This document shows, one piece after another, positions 701 to 39,436 of a stretch of DNA of 39,436 nucleotides. The notes beneath the pieces were generated by a model, which ran no database searches, had not been told where the DNA came from, and saw nothing but the letters and a program-made list of their open reading frames with translations. The first letter of the stretch is position 1. The number at the start of each line of letters is the position of its first letter. Both the position numbers and the translations under genes were made by a program. Source of the DNA: a virus (taxonomy: Duplodnaviria; Heunggongvirae; Uroviricota; Caudoviricetes). The DNA lies in IMG/VR virus record IMGVR_UViG_2537561944_000032. The stretch is one strand, 5' to 3'.

Positions 701-776
<76 letters not shown>

Positions 777-830
777 GTTTAAAAGACATCGGCGTCAAGC
801 GGATGTCTGGCTGAAAGGCCTGAAGAATTT

Positions 831-904
831 GGCGCGTTAACAAAGCGGTTATGTAGCGGATTGCAAATCCGTCTAGTCCGGTTCGACTCCGGAACGCGCC
901 TCCA
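831..904 (+). tRNA. cysT: tRNA-Cys (anticodon GCA)
   Basis: 74-nt sequence ggcgcgttaacaaagcggttatgtagcggattgcaaatccgtctagtccggttcgactccggaacgcgcctcca; GCA anticodon; CCA encoded. Confidence 0.95.
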
Positions 905-916
905 CTTTCTTCCCGA

Positions 917-1003
917 GCCCGGATGGTGGAATCGGTAGACACAAGGGATTTAAAATCCCTCGGCGTTCGCGCTGTGCGGGTTCAAGTCCCGCTCCGGGTA
1001 CCA
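917..1003 (+). tRNA. leuZ: tRNA-Leu (anticodon TAA), long variable arm
   Basis: 87-nt sequence gcccggatggtggaatcggtagacacaagggatttaaaatccct...gggttcaagtcccgctccgggtacca; class II tRNA with TAA anticodon. Confidence 0.95.
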
Positions 1004-1044
1004 TGGGAAAGATAAGAATAAAATCAAAGCAATAAGCAGTGTCG

Positions 1045-1072
1045 TGAAACCACCTTCGGGTGGTTTTTTCGT
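1045..1072 (+). terminator. rho-independent terminator of the tRNA operon
   Basis: Hairpin aaaccacc-ttcg-ggtggttt followed by a T-run (ggtggttttttcg). Confidence 0.7.
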
Positions 1073-13300: not shown

Positions 13301-13879
13301 TTATTGTGGGGCGACTGGCCACTCAACATCCGCTGCTACCGCTGTATTAACACGATTCAACAATACCCGGTATGTCTTCCATGCAGCCAGTAACGATGCC
13401 TCTTCCTCCGTTGCAATATCCAAATCTACGGCATCCTGAAGTGGCGCAATATGCTCGCTGGCTACCTGCATCAGGCTGTTTTTTGTTTCTTCCGCCTCCC
13501 TTATCCGAAACAGTTTTTCTGCTTCTGCATCTTTCACCCAGGATGTGCCGTTCCACTTCTGATACTCTCCATACGGCGACAACCAGGTAACATTTTCCGG
13601 TAATGGACCGAGTTCAGAAATAAATAACGAGTCCCCTGATGCCACGTCATAAACCGTTTTACCCCGATGGTCTTCAACGAGATGCCACGATGCCTCATCA
13701 CTGTTGAAAACGGCCACGAAGCCAGCCGGAATATCTGGCGGGGCAATATCGGTACTGTTTGCAGGCAGACCTGTATGAGGTGGAATGTATGCATCACCTT
13801 CACCAATAAACTCATTGGTTCCGGTCAGTAGATTATAAATTTTTATGGTCCGTGAGTGTTCACTCATTCTGAATGTCAT
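13301..13879 (-). CDS. G: tail fiber assembly protein (P2 gpG-like)
   Basis: 192-aa ORF immediately downstream of the tail fiber gene on the same strand; typical size and position of gpG/Tfa. Confidence 0.75.
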
Positions 13880-28100: not shown

Positions 28101-29120
28101 ATGAGTTCACGCATTGATCTCGCTGATGCGCTCAGGAAAGAATCATCGCTCAGTGCATTCACATTTGATGGTCCTTATCGCCTGACCGGGCATGACCTGC
28201 TGGACAATATGTACTGTGCTGATAACGGACGGTGGTATGAAACCCCGGTGGACTGGTACGGTCTGGCAAGAGCAGCCCGGCAAACGTCCTGGCATCAGTC
28301 TGCGCTTTACTTTAAGCGCAATGTATTACTCGGTTGCTACATCCCGCACCCGCTGCTTTCCCGGCAGGATTTCTCGGCGCTGGCGCTGGACTGGTTTGTG
28401 TTCGGTAACGCATTCCTTGAGCTTAGAAGCAATATGCTCGGCGAACCGCTTAAATTACGGCACGCCCTGGCGAAATACATGCGACGCGGAAGCGATCTTG
28501 AATCATGGTGGTATGTGCAGGATGGCAAGGACGCGTTCCAGTTTCGCCCTGGCAAAGTGTGCCACCTGATGAATCCGGATATTAACCAGGAAATCTACGG
28601 CATGCCGGAATATCTTGGCGCATTACTCTCGGCCAGCCTTTCTCATTCGGCGGACATGTTCAGAAAACTGTACTACGACAACGGATCCCACGCCGGGTGC
28701 ATCATCTACATCGGTGCAGCGCAGGTAAACCGCGAAAGCATGGACTCCCTGAAAGAAACGTTACAGGGCGCGCGTGGTGGTGGTGCGTTTAAAAACGTAC
28801 TCATCCATGCGCCCAACGGGGGCAAAGAAGGTGTGCAAATTTTGCCGTTCCAGCAGATCACTGCAAAGGATGAGTTCATGAATGTTAAGGCGGCATCCCG
28901 TGATGATGTGCTGGCTGCGCACCGCGTTCCGCCGCAACTGATGGGGGCGATGCCGGGCGAAAAAAGTGCGTTTGGTGATGTGGAGAAGGCCGCGCGGGTT
29001 TACGCAATTAACGAGCTGATGCCCGTTATGGAGGCCATGAAGCACATCAATGACTGGCTTGGCGAAGAGGTGATCCGCTTTAACCCTTACGCACTGCTAG
29101 ATACCCAGCCCACATCCTGA
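28101..29120 (+). CDS. Q: portal (capsid vertex) protein gpQ-like
   Basis: 339 aa from ATG 28101 (ORF opens at 27990, overlapping the end of P); downstream of P on the same strand, divergent from O as in P2. Confidence 0.85.
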   Translation: MSSRIDLADALRKESSLSAFTFDGPYRLTGHDLLDNMYCADNGRWYETPVDWYGLARAARQTSWHQSALYFKRNVLLGCYIPHPLLSRQDFSALALDWFVFGNAFLELRSNMLGEPLKLRHALAKYMRRGSDLESWWYVQDGKDAFQFRPGKVCHLMNPDINQEIYGMPEYLGALLSASLSHSADMFRKLYYDNGSHAGCIIYIGAAQVNRESMDSLKETLQGARGGGAFKNVLIHAPNGGKEGVQILPFQQITAKDEFMNVKAASRDDVLAAHRVPPQLMGAMPGEKSAFGDVEKAARVYAINELMPVMEAMKHINDWLGEEVIRFNPYALLDTQPTS

Positions 29121-29146
29121 CGCGCTTCGCTTGTCTGCTGCTTCGC

Positions 29147-29171
29147 CGGGGCATAAAAAATTTATGCCCCG
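29147..29171. terminator. perfect palindromic hairpin (bidirectional terminator candidate) downstream of Q
   Basis: ggggcataaa-aaa-tttatgcccc; 10-bp perfect arms with A/T loop. Confidence 0.6.
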
Positions 29172-29543
29172 ACTCTCCAGCTCCTGTATCAATCAGATAA
29201 TTTCACGACGCTTTTCTGCTTATTGTCATCATCGGCGGTCAGACTCTTACGCAATCCCACCGCGTTGACTGCATGTTCTCGCCGCCTCAGTGCGATTTTG
29301 ACGGCCTTATCTGCCACCCATCAAATCAAAAGCCCTCACGTCTTTTTCACGCTCAGCGTGAGAAATACAGCCATTCTGTTGTGTCGCTGCGACATCGTTC
29401 AGGGGATGCTATTTACCCCCTGAAACGCGGGCTGTTCCCCCGTCACCTGCGCGCAGAAAAAGCGCGTTTTTTTGTGCACGCACGGATCCTTGACGGATCC
29501 AGCCGCCATGCGGGCCGGAAGGGTAAAAAGTCGTTCAAAAAAA

Positions 29544-29570
29544 TTGTGCAAACTTGTGCACTATTGTGCA
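29544..29570. repeat. three tandem TTGTGCA iterons at exact 10-bp phasing
   Basis: aaaTTGTGCAaacTTGTGCActaTTGTGCA; lies in the non-coding region between Q and the Ea22-like gene, where the P2 cos site would be expected. Confidence 0.6.
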
Positions 29571-29609
29571 GCAGGGCGATGCGCGATTATCGCCCTGGTT
29601 TGAGGGGGA

Positions 29610-30200
29610 TCAGGTGTTATTTTTATCTGTCGTCAGTGGGCTAAACCATCCACGATTTACATCGCAGGACTGATGCGTTCTGTCCTCGTGTTTCTCCTGC
29701 CACAATGCTTTTCCGCCAGCCTTTATGATGGCTCTTTCAACATCCCGCTCGTATCGCAAGGGCTGAAATACGTCATTAATGAAATATTCGCTTATGTCCG
29801 GAAGCGATACTGCAAAATTATTTGTTTGTTGCGCCGTCCTGCTATGCAGCAAAGCGGCATACTTTAATGCGTCCTGTGCTTTCTGGAATTTAAGTGCATA
29901 GTCAGTGGCGATTTTTTCCAGTTCAGCGATTCGGTTGTCTTTGGTTTCCAGCCAATCAAGTAGCGCCAATACTTCAGGATCCCCGACATCCAACACTGTT
30001 ACGCGTGATTTTTCATAATGTTCGTCGGCAAGAGTTCGGCCAATTTTGAAATCTCCATCATCACCATAACCGGAGCAGGCATAAACAACCTGTGCTCCAG
30101 ATATTCGCTGAATTGACATTTCCTCGCCGCAAATAGGGCATTTCGGTACTGGCACAGGTGAATAACGTTCACGTAATGCCTGATAGTTGATTTCGCTCAT
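29610..30200 (-). CDS. hypothetical protein, Ead/Ea22-like N-terminus with CxxC...C zinc-ribbon-like motif (196 aa)
   Basis: Starts MSEINYQALRERYS...KCPICGEEMSIQRISGAQVVYACSG; AAGGAG RBS; last gene of the parM-parR-containing unit. Confidence 0.55.
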   Translation of the reverse strand: MSEINYQALRERYSPVPVPKCPICGEEMSIQRISGAQVVYACSGYGDDGDFKIGRTLADEHYEKSRVTVLDVGDPEVLALLDWLETKDNRIAELEKIATDYALKFQKAQDALKYAALLHSRTAQQTNNFAVSLPDISEYFINDVFQPLRYERDVERAIIKAGGKALWQEKHEDRTHQSCDVNRGWFSPLTTDKNNT

Positions 30201-30263
30201 TAAGTCGTTCTCCTTGTTTATGTTCTGAGGTGGAGAGCAGGGCGAACTCGCCCTGATGTTTTG

Positions 30264-30575
30264 TTATTCAGGAAATAACGCCCGGATATTTCCGGCCATC
30301 TGACTGGTTATCTGTGCGGTTGATACTGGCTGTGATGCGGGGCGTTCTGTCCTGGTTTGTGTCACTGATAACGCTTCATCACCAGCCCATGCAGCCAGTC
30401 GATAAGCCTCTGCCGGATTCATTTTCAGAAGTGCCAGCCCGGCCAGAAAAGCCACGCGTTGGCCGCTTTTGCGGGCTTCTGGTGTAAGGCTGTCCAGCCA
30501 GGCGCATGCTTCTCCTTCGTTCTTGACGGCGGTGGGCTTCAGATAGAAACTTATCCGTCTGGTTGGAGTCGTCAT
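30264..30575 (-). CDS. ParR/StbB-like centromere-binding adaptor (ribbon-helix-helix type)
   Basis: 103 aa from ATG 30575 (AAGGAG RBS, 2 nt after parM-like stop). RRISFYLKP...LDSLTPEARKSGQRVAFLAGLALL and C-terminal IRALFPE resemble plasmid R1 ParR as I recall it. Confidence 0.65.
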   Translation of the reverse strand: MTTPTRRISFYLKPTAVKNEGEACAWLDSLTPEARKSGQRVAFLAGLALLKMNPAEAYRLAAWAGDEALSVTQTRTERPASQPVSTAQITSQMAGNIRALFPE

Positions 30576-30579
30576 TGGT

Positions 30580-31539
30580 TTACTCCTTGTCCATTGCGTA
30601 CAGCCCATTAACCAGAGCAAACTGTGGCACCCCGTCCGCGATGAAAGTCGCATTAACTCCGCAGGCTTCGCGGATAGCGGGTGCCACAATCTCCGCCCCT
30701 CCACCGACAACCATCACCCGCCCGTAACCCGAAAAACCCGCCAGCGCGCGGATCACGCGTTGTTTCAGTGTTTCTTCCTTTTCACGAATAACCGCCATCA
30801 GGCTGGCGTAATGCGCGTCATTGTGGATGTGCTGGCGCAGCCAGGCTTCATCATGGCGATGTTCGATAATGGTATTGGCGATGTGGTGACTGGTGCGCAT
30901 ACCGTTAGTGGCCATCACCGACAGTACGGCATCGGCCATCAGAGAAACGCCCACGTGTGGATCGCAAAACACCTGGCTGATACCTGCCAGTTGCCCCTGA
31001 ACCTTTGCCACATCCAGAGTGGTTCCGCCCAAATCCACAATCAGCAGGGATTCAAACGGACTCATGTCAGCCAGTGCCTTAAAGCCAGCCGGAATGGATT
31101 CAGGCATAACCCGTACGTTACGGATAGTGAATGCTTCGCCGTTCTGGTACTCCACCGGGCGCATGACGTTCGCTTTTTTGCGGTTGATGTTGGCCATGTC
31201 CGGCTGTGCGTTTGTATCGAAATACTCGCTCAGTGGCAGGGTGACAACCACATCCACTTCCTGTGGTGTGATGCCTGATTTGACCAGCGCGTGATGAATG
31301 GCAATTATATTCACATCGCTGTACTGGTATTGCGTGTCGGTCGTCTGGACAAAGCGATCGCTGACCGGATCAAAACCATAGCGCACGCCATCAAGCATGT
31401 AGTTCGCGGGCTGCGTGCCACCGAACGGCGCAGACCATTCCGACTTGAAGCTGTTCGGGCTGATGGCGTTGCGGCGTTCGCCGTTCTCAGTCCATGCCAG
31501 CTTGATGTTGGTGGAGCCGTCGTCGATACAAATTTTCAT
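30580..31539 (-). CDS. ParM/StbA-like actin-family ATPase
   Basis: N-terminus MKICIDDGSTNIKLAW...ISPNSFKSEW...QYSDVNIIAIHHALVKSG closely parallels plasmid R1 ParM (FIDDGSTNIKLQW...ISPNSFKREW...QYSDVNVVAVHHALL) as I recall it; also the adjacent-Gly phosphate-binding loop DLGGTT. Confidence 0.8.
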   Translation of the reverse strand: MKICIDDGSTNIKLAWTENGERRNAISPNSFKSEWSAPFGGTQPANYMLDGVRYGFDPVSDRFVQTTDTQYQYSDVNIIAIHHALVKSGITPQEVDVVVTLPLSEYFDTNAQPDMANINRKKANVMRPVEYQNGEAFTIRNVRVMPESIPAGFKALADMSPFESLLIVDLGGTTLDVAKVQGQLAGISQVFCDPHVGVSLMADAVLSVMATNGMRTSHHIANTIIEHRHDEAWLRQHIHNDAHYASLMAVIREKEETLKQRVIRALAGFSGYGRVMVVGGGAEIVAPAIREACGVNATFIADGVPQFALVNGLYAMDKE

Positions 31540-31574
31540 GTCGCTTTTCCTTGTGTTGATTAATTAATCGGTTA

Positions 31575-31685
31575 CAGGATTTTTAAATCCCGCTTTTGCC
31601 TGTTTTGTGCGCGCTTCATATATCGCGGCACGTTTTTTGCTCATTTACGGGATTTGTGAGTCCCGTTTCTGTCTGTTTTTTGTTT
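31575..31685. repeat. two copies of a 35-40 bp direct repeat containing a short palindrome, spanning the 3' end of gene A and the parM upstream region
   Basis: acaggatttttaaatcccgcttttgcctgttttgtg (31575-31610) versus acgggatttgtgagtcccgtttctgtctgttttttg (31645-31680), about 80% identical. Confidence 0.4.
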
Positions 31686-34456
31686 CCACTGGTCAGGCTA
31701 CCCCGCAGCAGGTCTGCTTTGCGGTGGGCGCGTTCAGTGGTTTCACTGATTCTCTGTGCGTGCACTGCGTCACGGATGGCGCGCAGCATGTCAGAAAGCA
31801 CGGTAACGGGGGTTTTCATGGTGTTCTGGTCCTGCTGAAGTGTGGATGCCAGGTGTGCGGCGGCTTCGGGGTCTGATGCCCCCAGCTGTTCCAGATAGCT
31901 GGCGACCGGGTTATGGCGGATCTCCGTGCTGCTTACGCCGTGATTACGGCTCAGGCGCTGCCAGAGTTGCGTGATTCGGCTGTCCGGGCGGGTATCTGGT
32001 TTGCGTACAATTTCAAATCCCTGCGGTGCAATGATGCTGCCGTCAACGTACAGACTGCCGCCCCGTAACAGGTGCTGCATCTGCTGTTCACCGATATGCA
32101 GGCCGAGAGATTCAGCAGACTCCCGCCATTCTTTAGCGAGTAACTCGTGATTATCAGGCAAAGGCCGTGGCTGTTTGCGGCTCTGTGTCCAGTTCTGCAT
32201 TTCATCACTGCTGTTTTTTGCCTGTTTGTCACGCAGCGAACGCATCAGCGCCCGGCGTTCGTGCCGTTTCAGTGAGCGCATCCATTCATTCACGTCAACG
32301 CCGTCAGGAAGCTGCGGCCACGGTGCTGGCCTTTCTTCCGGCTGTTCTGTCCCGTTGTTGTCCGTTTCCTGTACACGGGGACAGTTATTGCCACGAGTCC
32401 AAGGGGCGGCAGGGCCGCCCTGAAGGTCAAAACCATTTTCGCGGGTGCTGTCTTCCGCTTCCGGTTTACGTCTTACCAGCTTCCAGTTATCCGGGTGCGT
32501 GCACACACGGGAGGATTCCCCGATGAGTGGTGACCAGATCCCGTAAATCTGTACGCTCTGTTCGCCGTAATCGTTCAGCTCATCTGCGAGGTCGTAGGCG
32601 GTGCGAATCAGGTAGTCTTTGCGTGGAACAAGTACGCCGCCCTGTTTCTCAATGTAGGTGGCAAAACACCCGGCATCAGCGGCAGCGAGTACCGCATCCA
32701 TTGCATCATCCTTCAGCCGTTGTGGGCCTTCCGGGTTGCGTGCCATCTGGCTGGCAAGGCGGCGGAGTTCACGCCATACCTGACGGGAGGGGATGCCAAA
32801 GAACTGGAACTGGCGGACCCGGTGAAGGCGTGCCCAGCCGATGGCGCGTTCCACGCTCTCGGCCATTGATTTTCCGGTTTCGTGGTCAACGCGTGGCTTG
32901 CCCGTTTTCGGGTCGATGCCATCCACGGCGCGGCTGTCCAGGTTCTTTCCGATGTAGGTGGCGATGTAGCTGGTTGGCGTGCCTTTTGAGCCGTCGACAT
33001 ACTCCACCTTAAAGCGCGGAGTAATATCATTGCCCAGCTCGTGGCGGTCTTCCTGAATGGCAATATCGCGGGTGTGGGACACAATGGTGTCGATTTCTTC
33101 CGGATGAGCAAAGACCATCATATGCCAGTGCACGGTGCCGTCATGGTGAGGCTCCACCGTGCGGATGCCATACCAGCGCAGGCCGTCGCGGTTCAGTTTC
33201 TTGCGGACCGCCGCAAAAAACGTGTTAACCAGGTAATCGCTGGAGTCGCGCATGGTGGCCCCGTTCCATTTGGGATTCGGATGACCGTTCTCTGTTGTGG
33301 CGTGGTATTTTGACGGGCAGGTGACAGTCAGAAACACCGCTCTGTCGCCACGGGCTTCGGCCAGAAGTTCCAGCCCCTTCATGGTGGCCATCATTTCTGC
33401 CTTACGGTGAATCGGGTTACTTACTCCCGCGTAATACACTGTCTCGAGATCAATCGTGAACCCGTCTTCGTTTTCCAGCATGAAACTTTTCAGGAAATCG
33501 CGTGTTTTCTCGCGCTGTGCGCGAAACTCGCTTAACGCGTCCTGGCTCAGATAGGGTGATGTTTTTCTGGAAACCAGACAGGCGGCGCGGAGTTGTTCTT
33601 CTCTCCACTCGCAACGTAACAGCCACAGTTTGCGTTTCCACCATTCCGCACAGGTCAGGCGAAGGATTGCGCCCGGCAGCAGCTCCGTGTCCGGTTCATT
33701 CCTCCGGTCTTTGTCTGTTGTCAGAGCGTCATAATGTGGAGGCATAGCGTGCAGGTGTAACGCCATGCGGGCCAGCATCTGATACGCCTTCAGCGTTACA
33801 TCCATGGTCAGCTCGCCATCGGTCGCGCCAAAGCCATCGCAGAGTTTTTCAAAAGTGCCACTGAACATCGCCGCCGTCATGGTGGCCAGCGTCTGTATCT
33901 GGTGTTTGTTGAGCTGCGGCAGGTAAAGCAAATCGTCCAGGCGTTCGCGTCCGGCAAGGGAGCGATAGCCCGGTGTCAGCCAGCGGCTGTCGGTGCGGTC
34001 CAGACGTTCGAATATTTTGCGCAGGGTTCCGCGCGCGTAGCGTTCAGCCTGCCAGCTCTTTTTGCCTTTCTGACGATCGGCTTCCTGCTTCTTGCGCAGA
34101 AAAGAGAGGTGGCGGCTCAGAGGTTCACGCAGATAAACGGGAAGCACCTTCAGTGTGGCAAAAGCACGGGCCACCGGGTCTTGTTCTGTTGCCTGACGCT
34201 TGCTGATGATGCTTTGTGCCAGCTTTTCACGCTGTCCGGCTTCCTCAAGGGATGCCATGAGTTTTTTACCCACGGTGGATTGTGCGAAAAAGGCTTCTTC
34301 CTTCGCTTCCTGTTCTTCCTGTGCCCTTTTGTTTGCCTCAAGGTAGTAACGGATGGCGCGTTGCAGGTCGGTTTCAGTTTCCTGCCTGCGCTCCGTAAAT
34401 CTGGCCGGATCAATGGCTGGCCGTGGTTCATTCCAGCTCCATGCAAACGCACTCAT
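31616..34456 (-). CDS. A: replication initiation endonuclease gpA-like (rolling-circle HUH nickase)
   Basis: About 946 aa; HUH motif GTVHWHMMVFAH and paired catalytic tyrosines SYIATYIGK; ATG 34456 in ATGA overlap with upstream ORF (GTG 34483 alternative). Confidence 0.85.
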   Translation of the reverse strand: MSAFAWSWNEPRPAIDPARFTERRQETETDLQRAIRYYLEANKRAQEEQEAKEEAFFAQSTVGKKLMASLEEAGQREKLAQSIISKRQATEQDPVARAFATLKVLPVYLREPLSRHLSFLRKKQEADRQKGKKSWQAERYARGTLRKIFERLDRTDSRWLTPGYRSLAGRERLDDLLYLPQLNKHQIQTLATMTAAMFSGTFEKLCDGFGATDGELTMDVTLKAYQMLARMALHLHAMPPHYDALTTDKDRRNEPDTELLPGAILRLTCAEWWKRKLWLLRCEWREEQLRAACLVSRKTSPYLSQDALSEFRAQREKTRDFLKSFMLENEDGFTIDLETVYYAGVSNPIHRKAEMMATMKGLELLAEARGDRAVFLTVTCPSKYHATTENGHPNPKWNGATMRDSSDYLVNTFFAAVRKKLNRDGLRWYGIRTVEPHHDGTVHWHMMVFAHPEEIDTIVSHTRDIAIQEDRHELGNDITPRFKVEYVDGSKGTPTSYIATYIGKNLDSRAVDGIDPKTGKPRVDHETGKSMAESVERAIGWARLHRVRQFQFFGIPSRQVWRELRRLASQMARNPEGPQRLKDDAMDAVLAAADAGCFATYIEKQGGVLVPRKDYLIRTAYDLADELNDYGEQSVQIYGIWSPLIGESSRVCTHPDNWKLVRRKPEAEDSTRENGFDLQGGPAAPWTRGNNCPRVQETDNNGTEQPEERPAPWPQLPDGVDVNEWMRSLKRHERRALMRSLRDKQAKNSSDEMQNWTQSRKQPRPLPDNHELLAKEWRESAESLGLHIGEQQMQHLLRGGSLYVDGSIIAPQGFEIVRKPDTRPDSRITQLWQRLSRNHGVSSTEIRHNPVASYLEQLGASDPEAAAHLASTLQQDQNTMKTPVTVLSDMLRAIRDAVHAQRISETTERAHRKADLLRGSLTSGNKKQTETGLTNPVNEQKTCRDI

Positions 34457-34842
34457 GGCTGGTATCCCGTCACGCGCTGCCACTCCTGTGAGAAGAGGGC
34501 GGAAAGGCGGTTAAATTCAGCGGAGTATTCACTCAGCGAGGCACACCCGCCAGCAGTGCGATGCGCCAGCATTGCCGCAAATATGGAGGCCGGGGAGTCG
34601 TAATACGCCAGCAGTGATTCGCCGTGTGGTGTCAGGCAGTGCAACGCCAGCCCGTGTGGTGTGAAGTCCACGCGGTAGCAGTCGTCTACTGTGAAATAAA
34701 GGGTGTCTGCATTCTCCGGTTTTGTGGTGCGTGCTCTGTTGTCACGACCACGGATGTAGAGATCAAATAATCCCTGAAGAACGGGAGCCAGACGGGTGTC
34801 CTGTGTGCGCACCCATCTTGTGAAGTCATGAGCGTCAATCAT
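34453..34842 (-). CDS. hypothetical early protein (129 aa)
   Basis: ORF translationally coupled to gene A (ATGA overlap); no family recognised. Confidence 0.5.
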   Translation of the reverse strand: MIDAHDFTRWVRTQDTRLAPVLQGLFDLYIRGRDNRARTTKPENADTLYFTVDDCYRVDFTPHGLALHCLTPHGESLLAYYDSPASIFAAMLAHRTAGGCASLSEYSAEFNRLSALFSQEWQRVTGYQP

Positions 34843-34950
34843 GCTGCAATTCTCTTTACTACAGATGTGCGAAGGCTTCCTGCCAAAAAACTCAGAAGCG
34901 GTCGGTTACAGGAATTGACGTTCTACGAGTAGTTATTGCTGGCTTGAGGT

Positions 34951-35169
34951 TCATTTCTGTTTAATTCCGTGCATGCTGTAGAAGAAATCAAAAGTGTTAT
35001 CTATGCGTATCATGAGCTCACGCTGCATCGCTTCTGGTGTTTCTGGTTCGCCTGGTGAGCCAACTCCCGCGAAGAAATCACCGATCTCGCTTTGAATAAG
35101 TGCCTTTAGCGTTGCTGAGGAACTCAGGTGTGTTCGGTGATGTCTGCGAGTGATTCTTCTCCTACTCAT
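34951..35169 (-). CDS. hypothetical early protein (72 aa)
   Basis: ORF with ATGA overlap to upstream gene; basic N-terminus. Confidence 0.45.
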   Translation of the reverse strand: MSRRRITRRHHRTHLSSSATLKALIQSEIGDFFAGVGSPGEPETPEAMQRELMIRIDNTFDFFYSMHGIKQK

Positions 35170-35369
35170 TTGCGTGGATCCTGTACCTGTCGGATAAGAT
35201 TCACCCGCGCCACATTAGTGGCGCAAAAGTAAGTGCCGTCAGTGAGATAGATGTGGTGTGCATCCTTTTCTGAGCGGTGTTTGTCGATTGTGGTAATCAG
35301 ACGTTCGTCGACTTCGTATTCACGTCCTCTGGAGGTGAAACGAACGACAGGAAAATGCTTAATTGCCAT
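35166..35369 (-). CDS. hypothetical early protein (67 aa)
   Basis: Met at 35369 (MAIKHFPVVRF...) preceded by perfect AAGGAGG RBS; ORF-track version extends to 35420 without RBS support. Confidence 0.55.
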   Translation of the reverse strand: MAIKHFPVVRFTSRGREYEVDERLITTIDKHRSEKDAHHIYLTDGTYFCATNVARVNLIRQVQDPRK

Positions 35370-35455
35370 TACGCCTCCTTGGTGTGTGTGAATACCTCTG
35401 CGAATGCAGATTGTGTTCACATTTTTTTATTTAAGCTGGGGTTTTATTTATGCGG

Positions 35456-35569
35456 TTATTCGCCAGTGAAAAAGCGTTCAATCTTTTTTACTGAATTAAT
35501 AATTCGCATAATACCAATTGCACAAACCACCGAAATAATAAGAACAATCCAGGATATAAATATACTCAT
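35456..35569 (-). CDS. small hydrophobic membrane peptide (37 aa)
   Basis: Manual translation MSIFISWIVLIISVVCAIGIMRIINSVKKIERFFTGE: one TM helix plus charged tail; ATG overlaps stop of upstream gene (ATGA). Below the ORF-track cutoff. Confidence 0.4.
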   Translation of the reverse strand: MSIFISWIVLIISVVCAIGIMRIINSVKKIERFFTGE

Positions 35570-35808
35570 GCGATATTTCCCAGTTTGTACGGCTCAATAT
35601 GCTCCCCGCATTCTGCGGCGCAGATAAGCTCAGAAAGTTCATTAAGTGCATCCAGATCGTCAGCGTAAAAAGCTACGTCATACAGACTCCGGATAGCCCT
35701 GGTCAATGAGTCACGGGCTGCACGTTCTGAATGAGCGCCGGATGCGCTTAAACGAAAATAAAAACGCTCAAGTGCTTTGTTGATGAGAGTTTTATATTCT
35801 TTATCCAT
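35566..35808 (-). CDS. hypothetical early protein (80 aa)
   Basis: ORF in the early operon; no family recognised. Confidence 0.45.
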   Translation of the reverse strand: MDKEYKTLINKALERFYFRLSASGAHSERAARDSLTRAIRSLYDVAFYADDLDALNELSELICAAECGEHIEPYKLGNIA

Positions 35809-35819
35809 CGCAACACCCT

Positions 35820-36098
35820 TTAATCTGCTTTCTGAATTTCAGCTTCTGAATCCATGCAGATAATCTCGATATAGGGTTCATCGCCATTAACCTGACGAGA
35901 TTTTTCGGCTTCGCTAATTATTTCGCGAATGATCTGGTACGGAAGCTCTACAGTCAGGCGTGTACCGTTCAGATAAACGTAGGTAGCTGCGTTTTTTTCA
36001 GATGGAACTACTCCGTCAATAGCTGATGCGCGTAATAACAGTTCACCGCGAAAATCAATAAAGCGGATAAATACACCTTGTGCATGGTCTTTAGTCAT
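35820..36098 (-). CDS. hypothetical early protein (92 aa)
   Basis: ORF in the early operon; no family recognised. Confidence 0.45.
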   Translation of the reverse strand: MTKDHAQGVFIRFIDFRGELLLRASAIDGVVPSEKNAATYVYLNGTRLTVELPYQIIREIISEAEKSRQVNGDEPYIEIICMDSEAEIQKAD

Positions 36099-36108
36099 AA
36101 AGCACCTG

Positions 36109-36458
36109 TTATAAAGCAGCCTGTTTAATAAAACTTTGCCCGCGAAGCAGACGATCGACTGTGCGTAGTGCTTCGTACAATGTGAAATCCTGCCCGAACT
36201 GATTATCGCCGCTGCTTAATGCAAAAATGCGGTTTCCGGTAAACGGATTGTGTGGGCATCTGTGAACCACGATTCCAGCTTTCTCAATCAGCCAGGTGTG
36301 TTCGCCGATTTGTTTTACAGCGTGCCCATCTGGTGTTGCGTGCGTCTCGTTCAGGTTATAGCGGCTGTTACTACGTGATGCACTGGTAGCGACGTGGTGT
36401 ACATGGCGTTCTACGCCATTACGAAATTTGGAGTATGGATTATTAGTGTTTTTTTCAT
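36109..36458 (-). pseudogene. possible frameshifted early gene (about 115 codons open but without an in-frame start)
   Basis: ATG at 36458 opens a frame that stops after 15 codons; the +1 frame is open for about 120 codons to a stop at 36109-36111 (…HNPFTGNRIFALSSGDNQFGQDFTLYEALRTV…). The two frames would join with one extra A in the A7 run (plus-strand T-run 36449-36455). Confidence 0.3.
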
Positions 36459-36479
36459 GATGATGCTCTGTTCATTGTT

Positions 36480-36683
36480 TTAGCTGTTAGCCAAAGCGTC
36501 TTTTAACATCGCCACAAGGTTTACTTCAGGCTTTTCCATTTTGGCGCGTTTGGGGCGGATAATAATTCGACCGTCAGCCAACATCTTTTTGCATGTATTA
36601 AGAGGGATACCTGTTATCTCTGCATATTTCTGCAGGGATACATAGGGGGCATTCACATTGATATTGATGGTTATACCTGACAT
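36480..36683 (-). CDS. small HTH DNA-binding protein, excisionase/Cox/AlpA-like (67 aa)
   Basis: AGGAGG RBS; YVSLQKYAEITGIPLNTCKKMLADGRI resembles the helix-turn-helix of Xis/AlpA-type proteins; second gene of the early rightward-type operon. Confidence 0.5.
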   Translation of the reverse strand: MSGITININVNAPYVSLQKYAEITGIPLNTCKKMLADGRIIIRPKRAKMEKPEVNLVAMLKDALANS

Positions 36684-36699
36684 CCCACTAGCCTCCTGA

Positions 36700-36906
36700 T
36701 CAGGAAGATTTGTTTTGTTCTTTCTGGGTTAGCTCTAGGCCGCGAAGGAAGATCATGCGCGCCATGTTAGAGGATGAGCGTTGTTCTTTAGCTGCCATTT
36801 CATCAATGACGGCTCGCTCCTCGAGGGACAGCCGAAGTGCCAGTCTTGGACCTGTGGCGGTGTTACGCGGAATGCGTGATCTGGTATCGTGAAGAACTTG
36901 TTTCAT
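36700..36906 (-). CDS. ribbon-helix-helix-like small regulator, first gene of early lytic operon (Cro/Apl-like role)
   Basis: 68 aa; RLALRLSLEERAVIDEMAAKEQRSSSNMARMI fits a beta-strand plus two-helix RHH pattern; divergent from the CI-like repressor gene. Confidence 0.5.
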   Translation of the reverse strand: MKQVLHDTRSRIPRNTATGPRLALRLSLEERAVIDEMAAKEQRSSSNMARMIFLRGLELTQKEQNKSS

Positions 36907-36981
36907 AGTGGTATATTGTGATCATCTAATAGCTCGTGAAATCATTTTGGTATCAAAAAAGATACCTGTCAAGGTTTTTGT
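36907..36981. promoter_or_regulatory. divergent promoter/operator region between CI-like repressor and early operon, with palindrome GGTATC-A6-GATACC
   Basis: 75-bp AT-rich spacer between divergent starts; perfect inverted repeat GGTATCaaaaaaGATACC at 36949-36966 and a TGATCA palindrome at 36919-36924. Confidence 0.5.
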
Positions 36982-37386
36982 ATGAAAAATGATATTGGTC
37001 AGCGGTTGCGTGAGGAAAGGGAAAGATTGGGACTTAGTCAAGTTGCCATGAGCGACATTGGTGGAGTCAAAAAGCTAACTCAGCTTAGATATGAGAAAGG
37101 AGATAGCTTTCCTGATGCTGCGTATTTGGCAGCGCTGTCTCGTTTTGGCCTTGATGTTCAGTATGTTGTGTTGGGAATTCACTCACCTGAAACTTATAAC
37201 GATGATGAGCAGGAGTTGATTACTCGCTTTCGAGCAGCTTCGTTAGATGTGAAAAACGCGGTGATCGGGGCTTTAAAAGGTGCGATCAGTGAAAAGGAAA
37301 CTCAGCCATCAGGACGTGAGTTAAATATTTCTGGTGGTAATAACCGTATCGCTGGTCGTGACTATAACGAAACTAAGGGTAGGTGA
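36982..37386 (+). CDS. CI-like repressor, XRE-family helix-turn-helix (134 aa)
   Basis: N-terminal HTH (QRLREERERLGLSQVAMSDIGGVKKLTQLRYEKGDSFPDAAYLAALSRFGLDVQYVVLG); divergent from early operon and on the same strand as int, like P2 C / 186 cI. Confidence 0.75.
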   Translation: MKNDIGQRLREERERLGLSQVAMSDIGGVKKLTQLRYEKGDSFPDAAYLAALSRFGLDVQYVVLGIHSPETYNDDEQELITRFRAASLDVKNAVIGALKGAISEKETQPSGRELNISGGNNRIAGRDYNETKGR

Positions 37387-37401
37387 TAGTAGGGAGGTGA
37401 C

Positions 37402-38052
37402 ATGGCCGTCAACTCAAACGGTTCAAACAATCGCGTTGCTGGGCGTGATTTTCACGAAAAGAATATTCAGATAGAGCGATATGATGGTTCTCATACCGTC
37501 AATATCGCAATCCCTTCGAATAATGATGATGACGATCGCCCTTTGCTTAAGGCTCAGCGTAAGGAGCTAAATAGCTTGGTTGCTGCTATTGCAGAAGCTA
37601 GCAATACTGAAGCGTTTATTATTTGGCAAAAAGTACATGCGGAGATTGGTGTAGCTGGTATTGATGATATGACAGTAAATCAATATAAAACAGCGGAGAG
37701 TTTTCTGCATGCAATGCTTGAGCGATGTAAAGATCATGATGCCTGTAAGACTCTTGTAAGTTTATTACTACGTAACAGTGAAGACTGTGGACTTCGACAA
37801 AAACTTCTGCGGTATTGCCATATCAATTTCGGTACAGGACGTTTAAACGATCTTACTCGTTCTCAGTTACAGTCTGCATTGTCGTGGTTAGAGCAACAAT
37901 CGGCATCAAGTCACACAGAGAGTTCGGCCTTACCAGAAGTTCGACTTCGTGCTTCAGAATTAATCCGACTTTATCCAAAAGAAATAATATTCTTTATCTG
38001 CGTAGGGGTTTTGGTAGGCGGTGCCATTTCTAGGGTGTTTTTTAATTTGTAA
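37402..38052 (+). CDS. hypothetical protein with C-terminal transmembrane anchor (216 aa); lysogeny-operon cargo
   Basis: In the same frame as the repressor ORF, separated by TGA-TAG-TAG and a GGGAGGTGA RBS; N-terminus repeats the repressor C-terminal motif (SNNRVAGRDFHE versus GNNRIAGRDYNE); C-terminal hydrophobic helix IIFFICVGVLVGGAISRVFF. Confidence 0.55.
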   Translation: MAVNSNGSNNRVAGRDFHEKNIQIERYDGSHTVNIAIPSNNDDDDRPLLKAQRKELNSLVAAIAEASNTEAFIIWQKVHAEIGVAGIDDMTVNQYKTAESFLHAMLERCKDHDACKTLVSLLLRNSEDCGLRQKLLRYCHINFGTGRLNDLTRSQLQSALSWLEQQSASSHTESSALPEVRLRASELIRLYPKEIIFFICVGVLVGGAISRVFFNL

Positions 38053-38081
38053 TCTTACTTGAGCTAAATTGAGGTAATGAT

Positions 38082-38429
38082 ATGAAAGTAAAAAAGGTTC
38101 AACTATTAGTTACTTTTTTATCTATGTTTTCTTTTTCCGCCGTCGCAATGCCTTTTAAAACTATTGAACGTGAGAGTTTCAATGGGGTATGGCCATTTAA
38201 TACTGATGAGGTTCAATTACAGTGTCTTGATGGTAATCCTTATGTGATGAATTTTGACGATAATAAGTTATATGCGCTTACAGGTTTAGCTCGAATAAAA
38301 GGTAAAACATTTGGTGCGTTACCGTTAGATAACAATAATCCATTTTGGCTAGATAATGATGCCGCCCCAGGGTTAAAAAAGAGTCTGGGGGATGTCACTA
38401 AGGCTGCATTTGATTTATGTGATAAGTAA
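38082..38429 (+). CDS. small secreted/periplasmic protein (signal peptide; possibly DUF2511/YebY-like), 115 aa
   Basis: Classical signal peptide MKVKKVQLLVTFLSMFSFSAVA; two Cys (possible disulfide); located between repressor module and int. Confidence 0.55.
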   Translation: MKVKKVQLLVTFLSMFSFSAVAMPFKTIERESFNGVWPFNTDEVQLQCLDGNPYVMNFDDNKLYALTGLARIKGKTFGALPLDNNNPFWLDNDAAPGLKKSLGDVTKAAFDLCDK

Positions 38430-38434
38430 CTAAA

Positions 38435-39436
38435 ATGTCGGTTCGTAAGATTCCATCAGGTAAATGGCTTTGCGAATGTTATCCCTACGGGGCATCGGGA
38501 AAACGCATTCGTAAACAGTTTGCGACAAAAAGTGAGGCGCTCTCTTATGAGCGCCGTTTAATGAATAGTAGAGTTGGAGACGAGTTTCAAGATGGTTCTG
38601 GTCCTCGTCTTTCTGAGTTGATTGCTCGTTGGTTTGAGATGTACGGTAAAACCTTGTCCTCTGGTGCAGAGCGCAAAGTCAAACTTGAGGCGATTTGTTC
38701 CAGGCTGGGGGATCCATTTGCTTCTCAGTTTGACAAAAATATGTTTGCTACTTATCGGGAAAGAAGGCTATCAGGAGAATGGAATCCCAAGGGGAAGAAA
38801 AAACTTAGTGAAGCAACCGTTAATCGCGAGCAGTCATATCTACATGCTGTTTTTGCCGAACTGAAGCGCCTTGGGGAGTGGTCTGGTGAAAACCCCCTGA
38901 CTGGTATTCGCAAGTTTCGTGAGGAAGAAAAGGAACTGGCGTTTCTGTATGTAGATGAGATTGAACGCCTTCTGATTGCGTGTGATGAGTCACGGAATAA
39001 AGATTTGGGGGTTGTTGTCCGTATTGGGCTTGCGACTGGTGCTCGGTGGAGTGAAGCTGAAGGATTAAAGCAATCTCAAGTACTGCCCGGTCGAATCACA
39101 TTTGTTAAAACTAAAGGAAAGAAGAACCGCACTGTACCGATTTCACCTCAATTGCAGGCTATGCTTCCTCAAAAACGAGGAGCGCTATTTTCACCATGTT
39201 ATGAGGCTTTTGACGCTGCAATTAAGAGAGCGAAGATCGAGCTTCCTGATGGGCAATTAACTCATGTGCTACGTCACACGTTTGCCAGTCATTTTATGAT
39301 GCGGGGCGGAAATATTCTTGTGTTGCAAAAAATACTGGGGCATAGCGATATAAAAATGACTATGCGTTATGCGCATTTTGCTCCAGGTCATTTAGAGGCT
39401 GCTGTTGAATTGAACCCTTTTGACAATAGAGGGTAA
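38435..39436 (+). CDS. int: tyrosine-type site-specific integrase (P2 Int-like), 333 aa
   Basis: C-terminal catalytic region with R...HVLRHTFAS...MRYAHF (R-H-R-Y signature); ORF ends at the last base of the window, so the adjacent att site is not visible. Confidence 0.9.
   Translation: MSVRKIPSGKWLCECYPYGASGKRIRKQFATKSEALSYERRLMNSRVGDEFQDGSGPRLSELIARWFEMYGKTLSSGAERKVKLEAICSRLGDPFASQFDKNMFATYRERRLSGEWNPKGKKKLSEATVNREQSYLHAVFAELKRLGEWSGENPLTGIRKFREEEKELAFLYVDEIERLLIACDESRNKDLGVVVRIGLATGARWSEAEGLKQSQVLPGRITFVKTKGKKNRTVPISPQLQAMLPQKRGALFSPCYEAFDAAIKRAKIELPDGQLTHVLRHTFASHFMMRGGNILVLQKILGHSDIKMTMRYAHFAPGHLEAAVELNPFDNRG

Follow-up and report, generated by a model that had tools for sequence, protein, structure and literature searches.

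What does a 37-codon hydrophobic open reading frame (ORF), tucked into the early region of a P2-family prophage, contribute to the phage that carries it, and is it a gene at all? The ORF lies in a viral DNA of 39,436 nucleotides (nt) (IMG/VR record IMGVR_UViG_2537561944_000032), the whole of which we refer to as the window. A preliminary description, made from the letters of this DNA, had presented it as an unannotated, probably expressed ORF for a membrane peptide. The hydrophobic 37-codon frame was located at 35456-35569 on the minus strand. On the comparative sequence evidence set out below, it is a genuine, evolutionarily constrained gene for a predicted one-helix inner-membrane protein.

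We asked whether the reading frame is conserved in related prophages, a check that the preliminary description had suggested. The window was compared with 92 related loci, drawn from IMG/VR records, deposited phages and genomes; over a 643-bp segment, they share 81-100% DNA identity with it (blastn). Exactly 37 codons, together with the four-base ATGA overlap with the upstream DUF4754 gene, were found in 87 of these 93 sequences. Five others retain the start and the helix but have a frameshifted tail (30 or 45 amino acids (aa)), and a single copy, in predicted phage 503458, is disrupted together with its DUF4754 gene. Substitutions in the intact copies were counted on a minimum-spanning tree of the 60 distinct haplotypes; event counts on this tree are approximate because these prophages recombine. 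The small ORF in its own frame (24.5 synonymous and 83.5 non-synonymous sites) had undergone 63 synonymous and 55 non-synonymous events, fewer non-synonymous events than expected under neutrality (p=5e-13), with a ratio of non-synonymous to synonymous rates (omega) of 0.26. By contrast, neither of the other frames departed significantly from neutrality: frame +1 had 21 synonymous and 96 non-synonymous events (omega 1.29) and frame +2 had 19 and 98 (omega 1.15). The same count for DUF4754 in its own frame gave 151 synonymous and 60 non-synonymous events (omega 0.12, p=1e-50). Within the small ORF, helix and tail are both constrained (omega 0.24 and 0.29, respectively). We also considered an overlapping antisense gene as the cause of the constraint and rejected it: stops interrupt two of the antisense frames in 60 of 60 haplotypes and the third in 46 of 60.

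More distant relatives were sought with a profile search of 1.84 billion representative proteins, which returned only 17 clusters. Three of these are 41-residue forms, MSVFLSWVILIISVLMAIGIMRIIEALKNIESLFTGEERRK, MNILISWLILILAIICAVGTMRIINGIKTIESLFTGDKRHK and MSIFMSWVVLVLAIIFAIGIVKIITVIKAIEALFTGDKHHK, encoded in other E. coli P2-family prophages with integrase, repressor, Cox, DUF4761 and a GPA-type replication gene. Each 41-aa ORF directly follows an 80-aa gene and shares the same four-base overlap with it. In these deep relatives, synonymous differences are saturated (proportion of synonymous differences, pS, 0.74-0.84). The peptides are nevertheless 54-68% identical to that of the window, whereas the upstream 80-aa proteins are only 27-41% identical to the window's DUF4754, so that conservation is higher in the small gene than in its neighbour. 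One mosaic locus (L101, 2762-3126) carries a 41-aa peptide, P0195, behind a DUF4754 copy that is 83% identical to the window's, while the same P0195 allele in L100, L102 and L103 follows a DUF4754 copy only 41% identical to it. The occurrence of one 41-aa allele behind divergent DUF4754 copies points to a recombination breakpoint at or near the gene junction.

Searches beyond this group came back empty. The peptide had no match in the Pfam, PHROGs or PADLOC families; its sole NCBIfam match was a sub-threshold transmembrane entry (E=0.067), and the best hit of a profile search of the PDB (E=0.54) was a chance match. Rfam scans of both strands, at gathering and permissive thresholds, returned nothing relevant. 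Among the early proteins of phages P2 and 186, none was similar to the peptide or had a transmembrane-grade segment, and the early regions of these phages contain no unannotated hydrophobic small ORF comparable to it. Because no relatives emerged from families, structures, RNAs or the P2 and 186 early regions, we consider the gene, as far as these searches reach, to be specific to the DUF4754-carrying lineage; by source name, it is confined to Escherichia and some Shigella, Salmonella and Citrobacter records. One record under a Gram-positive label, 'Vagococcus sp. WN89Y' (L005, NZ_JBQPOM010000071.1), contains an E. coli-type region with a DUF4754 98% identical to the window's, and this label is likely to reflect contamination or a mislabelled assembly.

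The sequence of the ORF also exceeds chance expectation, as judged by its composition, its hydrophobicity and its predicted helix. Its GC content is 29.8%, and only 4.7% of composition-preserving shuffles of codons 2-37 remain open over these 36 codons. The best 19-residue Kyte-Doolittle window of the peptide scores 2.84; of the 143 ATG-initiated ORFs of 30-60 aa found on six-frame translation of the window, no other exceeds 2.27. AlphaFold2, supplied with an alignment of 23 homologues, modelled one continuous helix spanning residues 2-35 with a mean predicted local distance difference test score (pLDDT) of 87.7. The hydrophobicity and the model thus bear out the single transmembrane helix of the preliminary description, but not its basic tail: R22, K28, K29 and R32 are set against E31 and E37, so that the tail, although charged, is only slightly positive on balance and not strongly basic. 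Since all charges lie C-terminal to the helix, the positive-inside rule would place the N-terminus in the periplasm and the tail in the cytoplasm. Nine residues are invariant across all clades (M1, W7, A17, G19, I24, K28, I30, E31 and F34), position 13 is serine or alanine throughout, and the tail motif K-x-IE-x-[F/L]-FTG-[D/E] is retained in the 41-aa clade as well.

The junction with DUF4754 is conserved as well. The start codon of the small ORF overlaps the stop of the upstream gene, as originally reported, and the overlap is present in 92 of the 93 close sequences (window included), with the decayed copy of phage 503458 as the exception. The deep relatives L095 and L099-L103 retain it too. 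In every lineage, a purine-rich stretch lies 6-9 nt upstream of the ATG (TGGGAA, GAGGAG, AAGGGG or GAGGTGG), and these stretches persist even though the upstream protein ends in different residues. We found no support for masking of the ribosome-binding site by local RNA structure, as the local fold is no more stable than that of shuffled sequences (z=0.37).

We next placed the ORF in its transcriptional context. From 29100 to 39436, the window matches the P2-type prophage of E. coli O26:H11 11368 at 99.99% identity; among deposited phages, P88 and its relatives (family Peduoviridae, genus Xuanwuvirus) are the nearest. A scan of both strands between 34300 and 37300 found a single promoter-like site, probably the early promoter Pe, which faces the repressor gene. 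The genes that follow it on the minus strand are, in order, an Arc-like ORF, a Cox-like gene, DUF4761, a 92-aa gene, DUF4754 and the small ORF, which is the last cistron of a conserved promoter-proximal block that runs from the Cox-like gene. Beyond it come an 86-nt gap, genes of 67, 72 and 129 aa and replication gene A. Judged from gene order and by analogy with P2 and 186, the small ORF lies inside the early (Pe) operon of a P2-family prophage, and the label early operon in the preliminary description is sound on those grounds. Two further ATGA junctions that it listed in this operon were confirmed as well. In one (35166-35169), the stop codon of the 67-aa gene and the start codon of the 72-aa gene share bases; in the other (34453-34456), the stop codon of the 129-aa gene does so with the start codon of replication gene A as annotated in RefSeq. 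The position in the early operon, the maintained overlap, the frame-specific omega and the persistence in deep relatives together indicate that the small ORF is very probably expressed, in keeping with the earlier expectation.

The description of the ORF as unannotated, on the other hand, did not survive comparison with existing records. At the matching position of E. coli O26:H11 11368, in DNA with 100% identity to the window, RefSeq has a coding sequence, WP_000021647.1, named 'hypothetical protein'. In phage P88 the gene is gp07 (YP_009113050.1), labelled 'membrane protein'; its product is 92% identical over 37 aa, and it follows DUF4754 with the same overlap and in the same operon. 'Putative membrane protein' is its label in two other phage records, and the UniRef name for the exact 37-aa sequence, which occurs on at least 1000 contigs in a public protein collection, is 'Prophage membrane protein'. 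P88 gp07 and WP_000021647.1 are the same gene as the small ORF, differing by allelic substitutions only, and neither record comes with functional evidence; the P88 genome paper does not mention gp07 (PMC5285337). By sequence, then, the small ORF is a member of an annotated but uncharacterised orthologous group. What our analysis adds is comparative evidence for a real, deeply conserved gene with a defined motif and start/stop overlap, and nothing categorically new.

The gene is widespread, and its tail varies. Of 5426 complete E. coli genomes, 1367 (~25%) contain the 1-kb region in which it lies, and the prophages concerned include those of enterohaemorrhagic E. coli (EHEC) O26 and of ST131. 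Tail variants are found on hundreds of contigs, a 34-aa form on 388 and two 45-aa forms on 512 and 360. Two phages deposited as complete genomes with E. coli as the recorded host, Chuche and PhiR44_2, carry 30-aa and 45-aa tail variants, respectively. Because both have frameshifted tails, the full-length form appears to be dispensable for phage growth, as far as their sequences tell.

Taking these data together, we propose that the small ORF encodes an accessory, non-essential, host-modulating inner-membrane protein that is made only after derepression and acts on a specific partner, and we put the probability of this reading at roughly 0.6. Ribosomes ending DUF4754 translation would initiate the small ORF at the overlapping ATGA, aided by the weak purine-rich stretch, and synthesis would take place only once the immunity repressor has been lifted, that is, upon infection or induction. 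The peptide would then touch its partner at two sites: through a face of the helix lined with small residues ([S/A]13-x3-A17-x-G19; W7 would lie at the outer interface) and through the juxtamembrane motif K-x-I-E-x-[F/L]-F-T-G-[D/E]. Partner binding is suggested because this helix face and the tail motif survive saturated synonymous divergence, and a pore former would need neither. An accessory nature is suggested by the tail variants of Chuche and PhiR44_2 and by the frameshifted tails on hundreds of contigs. A narrower version of the proposal, in which the peptide inhibits or modulates, specifically and within the membrane, a single machine of the host inner membrane (for example one that serves division, envelope synthesis or transport, or a membrane protease), is a tentative one.

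Several known systems bear on this proposal. By position, the gene corresponds to those for Fil, a cell-division inhibitor, and Dhr, an inhibitor of host replication, of phage 186. Both are small, non-essential and encoded in the equivalent slot of a P2-family early operon, which in 186 lies after Apl/Cox and regulator genes and before the tR1 terminator and here lies before a conserved hairpin. They differ from the peptide in lacking both sequence similarity to it (phmmer E>1) and a transmembrane-grade segment, with best Kyte-Doolittle scores of 1.26 and 0.49 versus 2.84. Single-pass peptides of the AcrZ, MgtS and CydX type act by contacting a larger protein in the membrane (PMC12648545). The phage peptide, too, has a conserved helix face of small residues, but AcrZ, MgtS and CydX are chromosomal host genes with known partners, whereas the peptide is phage-borne and found in Escherichia-type P2-family prophages only. 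A precedent for specific inhibition is LysM, a 37-residue single-gene lysis peptide that inhibits the lipid II flippase MurJ (PMC12506998). The peptide shares its length and its single-helix build, but the analogy is confined to mechanism: LysM is a lysis gene of a single-stranded RNA phage without sequence similarity to the small ORF, which is an early gene. P2-type phages carry a separate late lysis cassette, and the small ORF, between the Cox-like gene and replication gene A, lies away from the position typical of holins and antiholins, in the late lysis genes beside an endolysin.

Certain observations weigh against our proposal. Frameshifted tails that lack the conserved motif are common, which means either that the motif is dispensable or that the gene decays freely in dormant prophages. 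The case for a partner is drawn from conservation patterns, and literature searches with DUF4754, Xuanwuvirus, the peptide sequence and the accessions found no work on the small ORF or on DUF4754. The Shine-Dalgarno-like TGGGA is weak, forming a duplex of -4.2 kcal/mol with the 3' end of 16S rRNA, a value comparable to those of several other genes of the operon. In the window itself, a frameshift in DUF4761 (see below) could lower expression of the early operon, including the small ORF, by polarity.

Were the narrower version of the proposal correct, roughly a quarter of complete E. coli genomes would carry a new host-takeover factor, with the K-x-IE-x2-FTG-[DE] tail as its contact site. Binding to a specific host membrane protein would amount to a new phage-host interaction and possibly offer a peptide inhibitor scaffold; with no measurable effect, the small ORF would still be a well-documented constrained accessory micro-gene. 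Targets are known for few of the small membrane proteins of phages, which are difficult to spot in the first place; the comparative support is unusually clean here.

Among the alternatives, the one that fares best, though we regard it as unlikely, is suggested by analogy: a generic membrane-damaging, host-killing peptide that would oligomerise in the inner membrane, dissipate the proton gradient in the manner of type I toxins or holins, and shut down host metabolism early in the lytic cycle. Type I toxins such as TisB, HokB, DinQ, ZorO and Ibs have fewer than 60 aa, one helix and a charged extension, and some are encoded on prophages (PMC12648545). At 37 aa, with a hydrophobicity of 2.84 and a single AlphaFold2 helix, the peptide agrees with them in size and in having one transmembrane helix, and its charged C-terminal extension resembles theirs (PMC12648545). 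Its extreme hydrophobicity also suits a membrane toxin, and the persistence of tail-less variants that keep the helix is expected if the helix alone matters. The genetic setting fits poorly. Type I toxin genes form their own transcription unit with a structured 5' untranslated region (UTR) by which translation is uncoupled from transcription, whereas the small ORF sits inside a long operon and has no 5' UTR of its own, its start overlapping the upstream stop. Simple scans for an antitoxin RNA, which could miss an undescribed one, detected no opposite-strand promoter-like site in 34300-37300 and no Rfam match above chance. Early killing would moreover harm a phage that still needs about 1 h of host metabolism, and a pore former has no use for the cytoplasmic motif that is kept across saturated divergence.

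Less probable still is that the peptide serves as a membrane anchor or partner of DUF4754, in a 1:1 complex in which its cytoplasmic tail would hold a three-helix bundle. DUF4754 is predicted to be a small soluble helical bundle without a fold relative: its AlphaFold2 model consists of three helices (mean pLDDT 88.6), and a fold search of the PDB with this model found only generic helical bundles (E>1) and no functional lead. The two genes are adjacent in every lineage examined, even where DUF4754 identity falls to 27-41%, and the 4-nt overlap favours equimolar synthesis. Allele shuffling speaks against such a complex, as P0195 stands behind both the 83%-type (L101) and the 41%-type DUF4754 (L100, L102, L103), so that the partners do not co-vary; nor are there stable natural fusions. 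Long 'DUF4754' entries (103-128 aa) were considered as Rosetta-stone fusions and rejected, since they are mostly out-of-frame read-throughs, start extensions or upstream fusions; only the singleton P0093 reads into the peptide frame.

By analogy with other phages, the peptide might instead act in superinfection exclusion or defence, as a block at the membrane to DNA entry or to the growth of other phages, but we consider this doubtful. Small membrane proteins act in exclusion in other phages, for example T4 Imm/Sp and HK97 gp15, and the small gene directly adjoins a variable gene slot. A gene inside a repressor-controlled early operon and with no promoter-like site of its own should, however, be silent in the lysogen, and PADLOC gave no match. 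The P2 exclusion gene tin is encoded on the opposite strand and is not part of the early operon, and two others, old and fun(Z), also lie outside it and are expressed in the lysogen. By its sequence context, the small ORF lacks the own-promoter, outside-operon location of these P2-type lysogenic-conversion and exclusion genes (old, tin, fun). The 216-aa membrane protein and the DUF2511 protein encoded after the repressor are more plausible candidates for lysogen-expressed conversion or exclusion than the small early ORF.

The remaining alternative, that the peptide is irrelevant and either translation alone matters (ribosomes on the mRNA avoiding Rho-dependent polarity ahead of the next gene) or the ORF is spurious, might be entertained in view of the 86-nt untranslated gap after the ORF, the AT-rich region and the tolerance of frameshifted and truncated versions, but is very improbable given that the amino-acid constraint is frame-specific (omega 0.26 versus ~1.2 in the other frames) and that the peptide has kept 54-68% identity in loci with saturated synonymous divergence, beside a neighbour at 27-41%.

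Table 1 Features of the small gene and its surroundings, in window coordinates.
Feature	Position	Strand	Remarks
Gene for small single-pass membrane protein (predicted), 37 codons	35456..35569	minus	Translation MSIFISWIVLIISVVCAIGIMRIINSVKKIERFFTGE; stop TAA at 35456-35458
Hydrophobic transmembrane segment (predicted), codons 3-21, IFISWIVLIISVVCAIGIM	35507..35563	minus	Kyte-Doolittle and AlphaFold2
Charged juxtamembrane tail, codons 22-37, RIINSVKKIERFFTGE	35459..35506	minus	Probably on the cytoplasmic side
ATGA overlap, small-gene ATG with DUF4754 TGA stop	35566..35569	minus	Plus-strand tcat reads ATGA
Weak Shine-Dalgarno-like TGGGA	35578..35582	minus	8 nt to the ATG; within the last DUF4754 codons
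A_AAA_AAG heptamer, in frame, codons 27-29 (GTA AAA AAG)	35483..35489	minus	Indel hot spot; potential -1 slippery site
DUF4754 gene, 80 aa	35566..35808	minus	Full-length Pfam match, E=7.5e-54
5-bp hairpin	35397..35410	minus	46-59 nt after the small-ORF stop; closes the conserved gene block
Promoter-like site TTGACA-17-CAAAAT, probable early promoter Pe	36944..36972	minus	Faces the repressor gene
Helix-turn-helix repressor gene	36982-37386	plus	Followed by 216-aa membrane protein, DUF2511 protein and integrase

The tail codons contain a heptamer with the in-frame X_XXY_YYZ pattern of dnaX-type -1 frameshift genes (Table 1). It is perfect in 65 of the 87 intact close relatives, and its AAA AAG is invariant in all 87. 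The -1 frame at this site reads KKD-stop, the same end as in the natural 30-aa variant, and this product recalls the gamma product of dnaX. The small ORF departs from dnaX-type genes in two respects: the heptamer is not conserved across the family, the 41-aa clade having K-N, K-T or K-A at this place, and inspection of the sequence found neither an upstream Shine-Dalgarno-like motif nor a directly downstream hairpin that could stimulate programmed -1 frameshifting. The heptamer might give rise to a second, tail-less product of 30 residues.

The hairpin downstream of the small ORF, which is found at the same place in L003-L103, reads TCTGC-ATTC-GCAGA in the window, TCCGC-N4-GCGGA in most relatives and TCCGT-ATTA-ACGGA in 17 loci. 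It thus shows two different compensatory pair changes, along with wobble variants, and has a fold z-score of -2.1. No U-run follows it on the gene strand; on the opposite strand it is followed by a T-rich tail, and it therefore resembles a terminator for that strand. The gap at 35370-35455 contains, between the hairpin and the next gene, a variable slot (at ~35384) that is empty in the window and in P88. About half of the related loci have 280-770 bp in this slot, with one or sometimes two genes for helical proteins of diverse kinds (87-138 aa); examples are L078 (1946-2356), L058 (1943-2206), L033 (1944-2261) and L087 (2446-3196).

Upstream in the operon, the start of DUF4761 (gene 36109-36459, minus strand) contains a run of seven adenines at 36448-36454 in the window versus eight in E. 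coli O26:H11 11368. This is the sole difference between the two over 10.3 kb; it shifts the DUF4761 frame after the third codon and leads to a stop after 15 codons. The shorter run may be a sequencing error; otherwise it is a genuine mutation that inactivates the gene. Between Pe and the Cox-like gene, a 68-aa ORF (36700-36906, minus strand) matches PHROG 3431, 'Arc-like repressor' (E=1e-28). RefSeq omits this ORF in strain 11368 and annotates a 45-aa ORF on the opposite strand instead.

On the plus strand, the region from 37402 to 38429 encodes the 216-aa membrane protein (PHROG 5825) and the DUF2511 protein, the latter with a signal-like N-terminus. The prophage as a whole sits between the glyW-cysT-leuZ tRNA genes (window 701-1003) and yecA, with the 3' end of the tRNA-Leu gene leuZ as its integration site. 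A 121-bp stretch of the window (949-1069) is found again in strain 11368 on the far side of the integrase gene, and this repeat is the duplication of the attachment (att) site. Finally, an Rfam IS009 match (192 bits) is located at 13338-13536 on the minus strand, inside the late region of the prophage.

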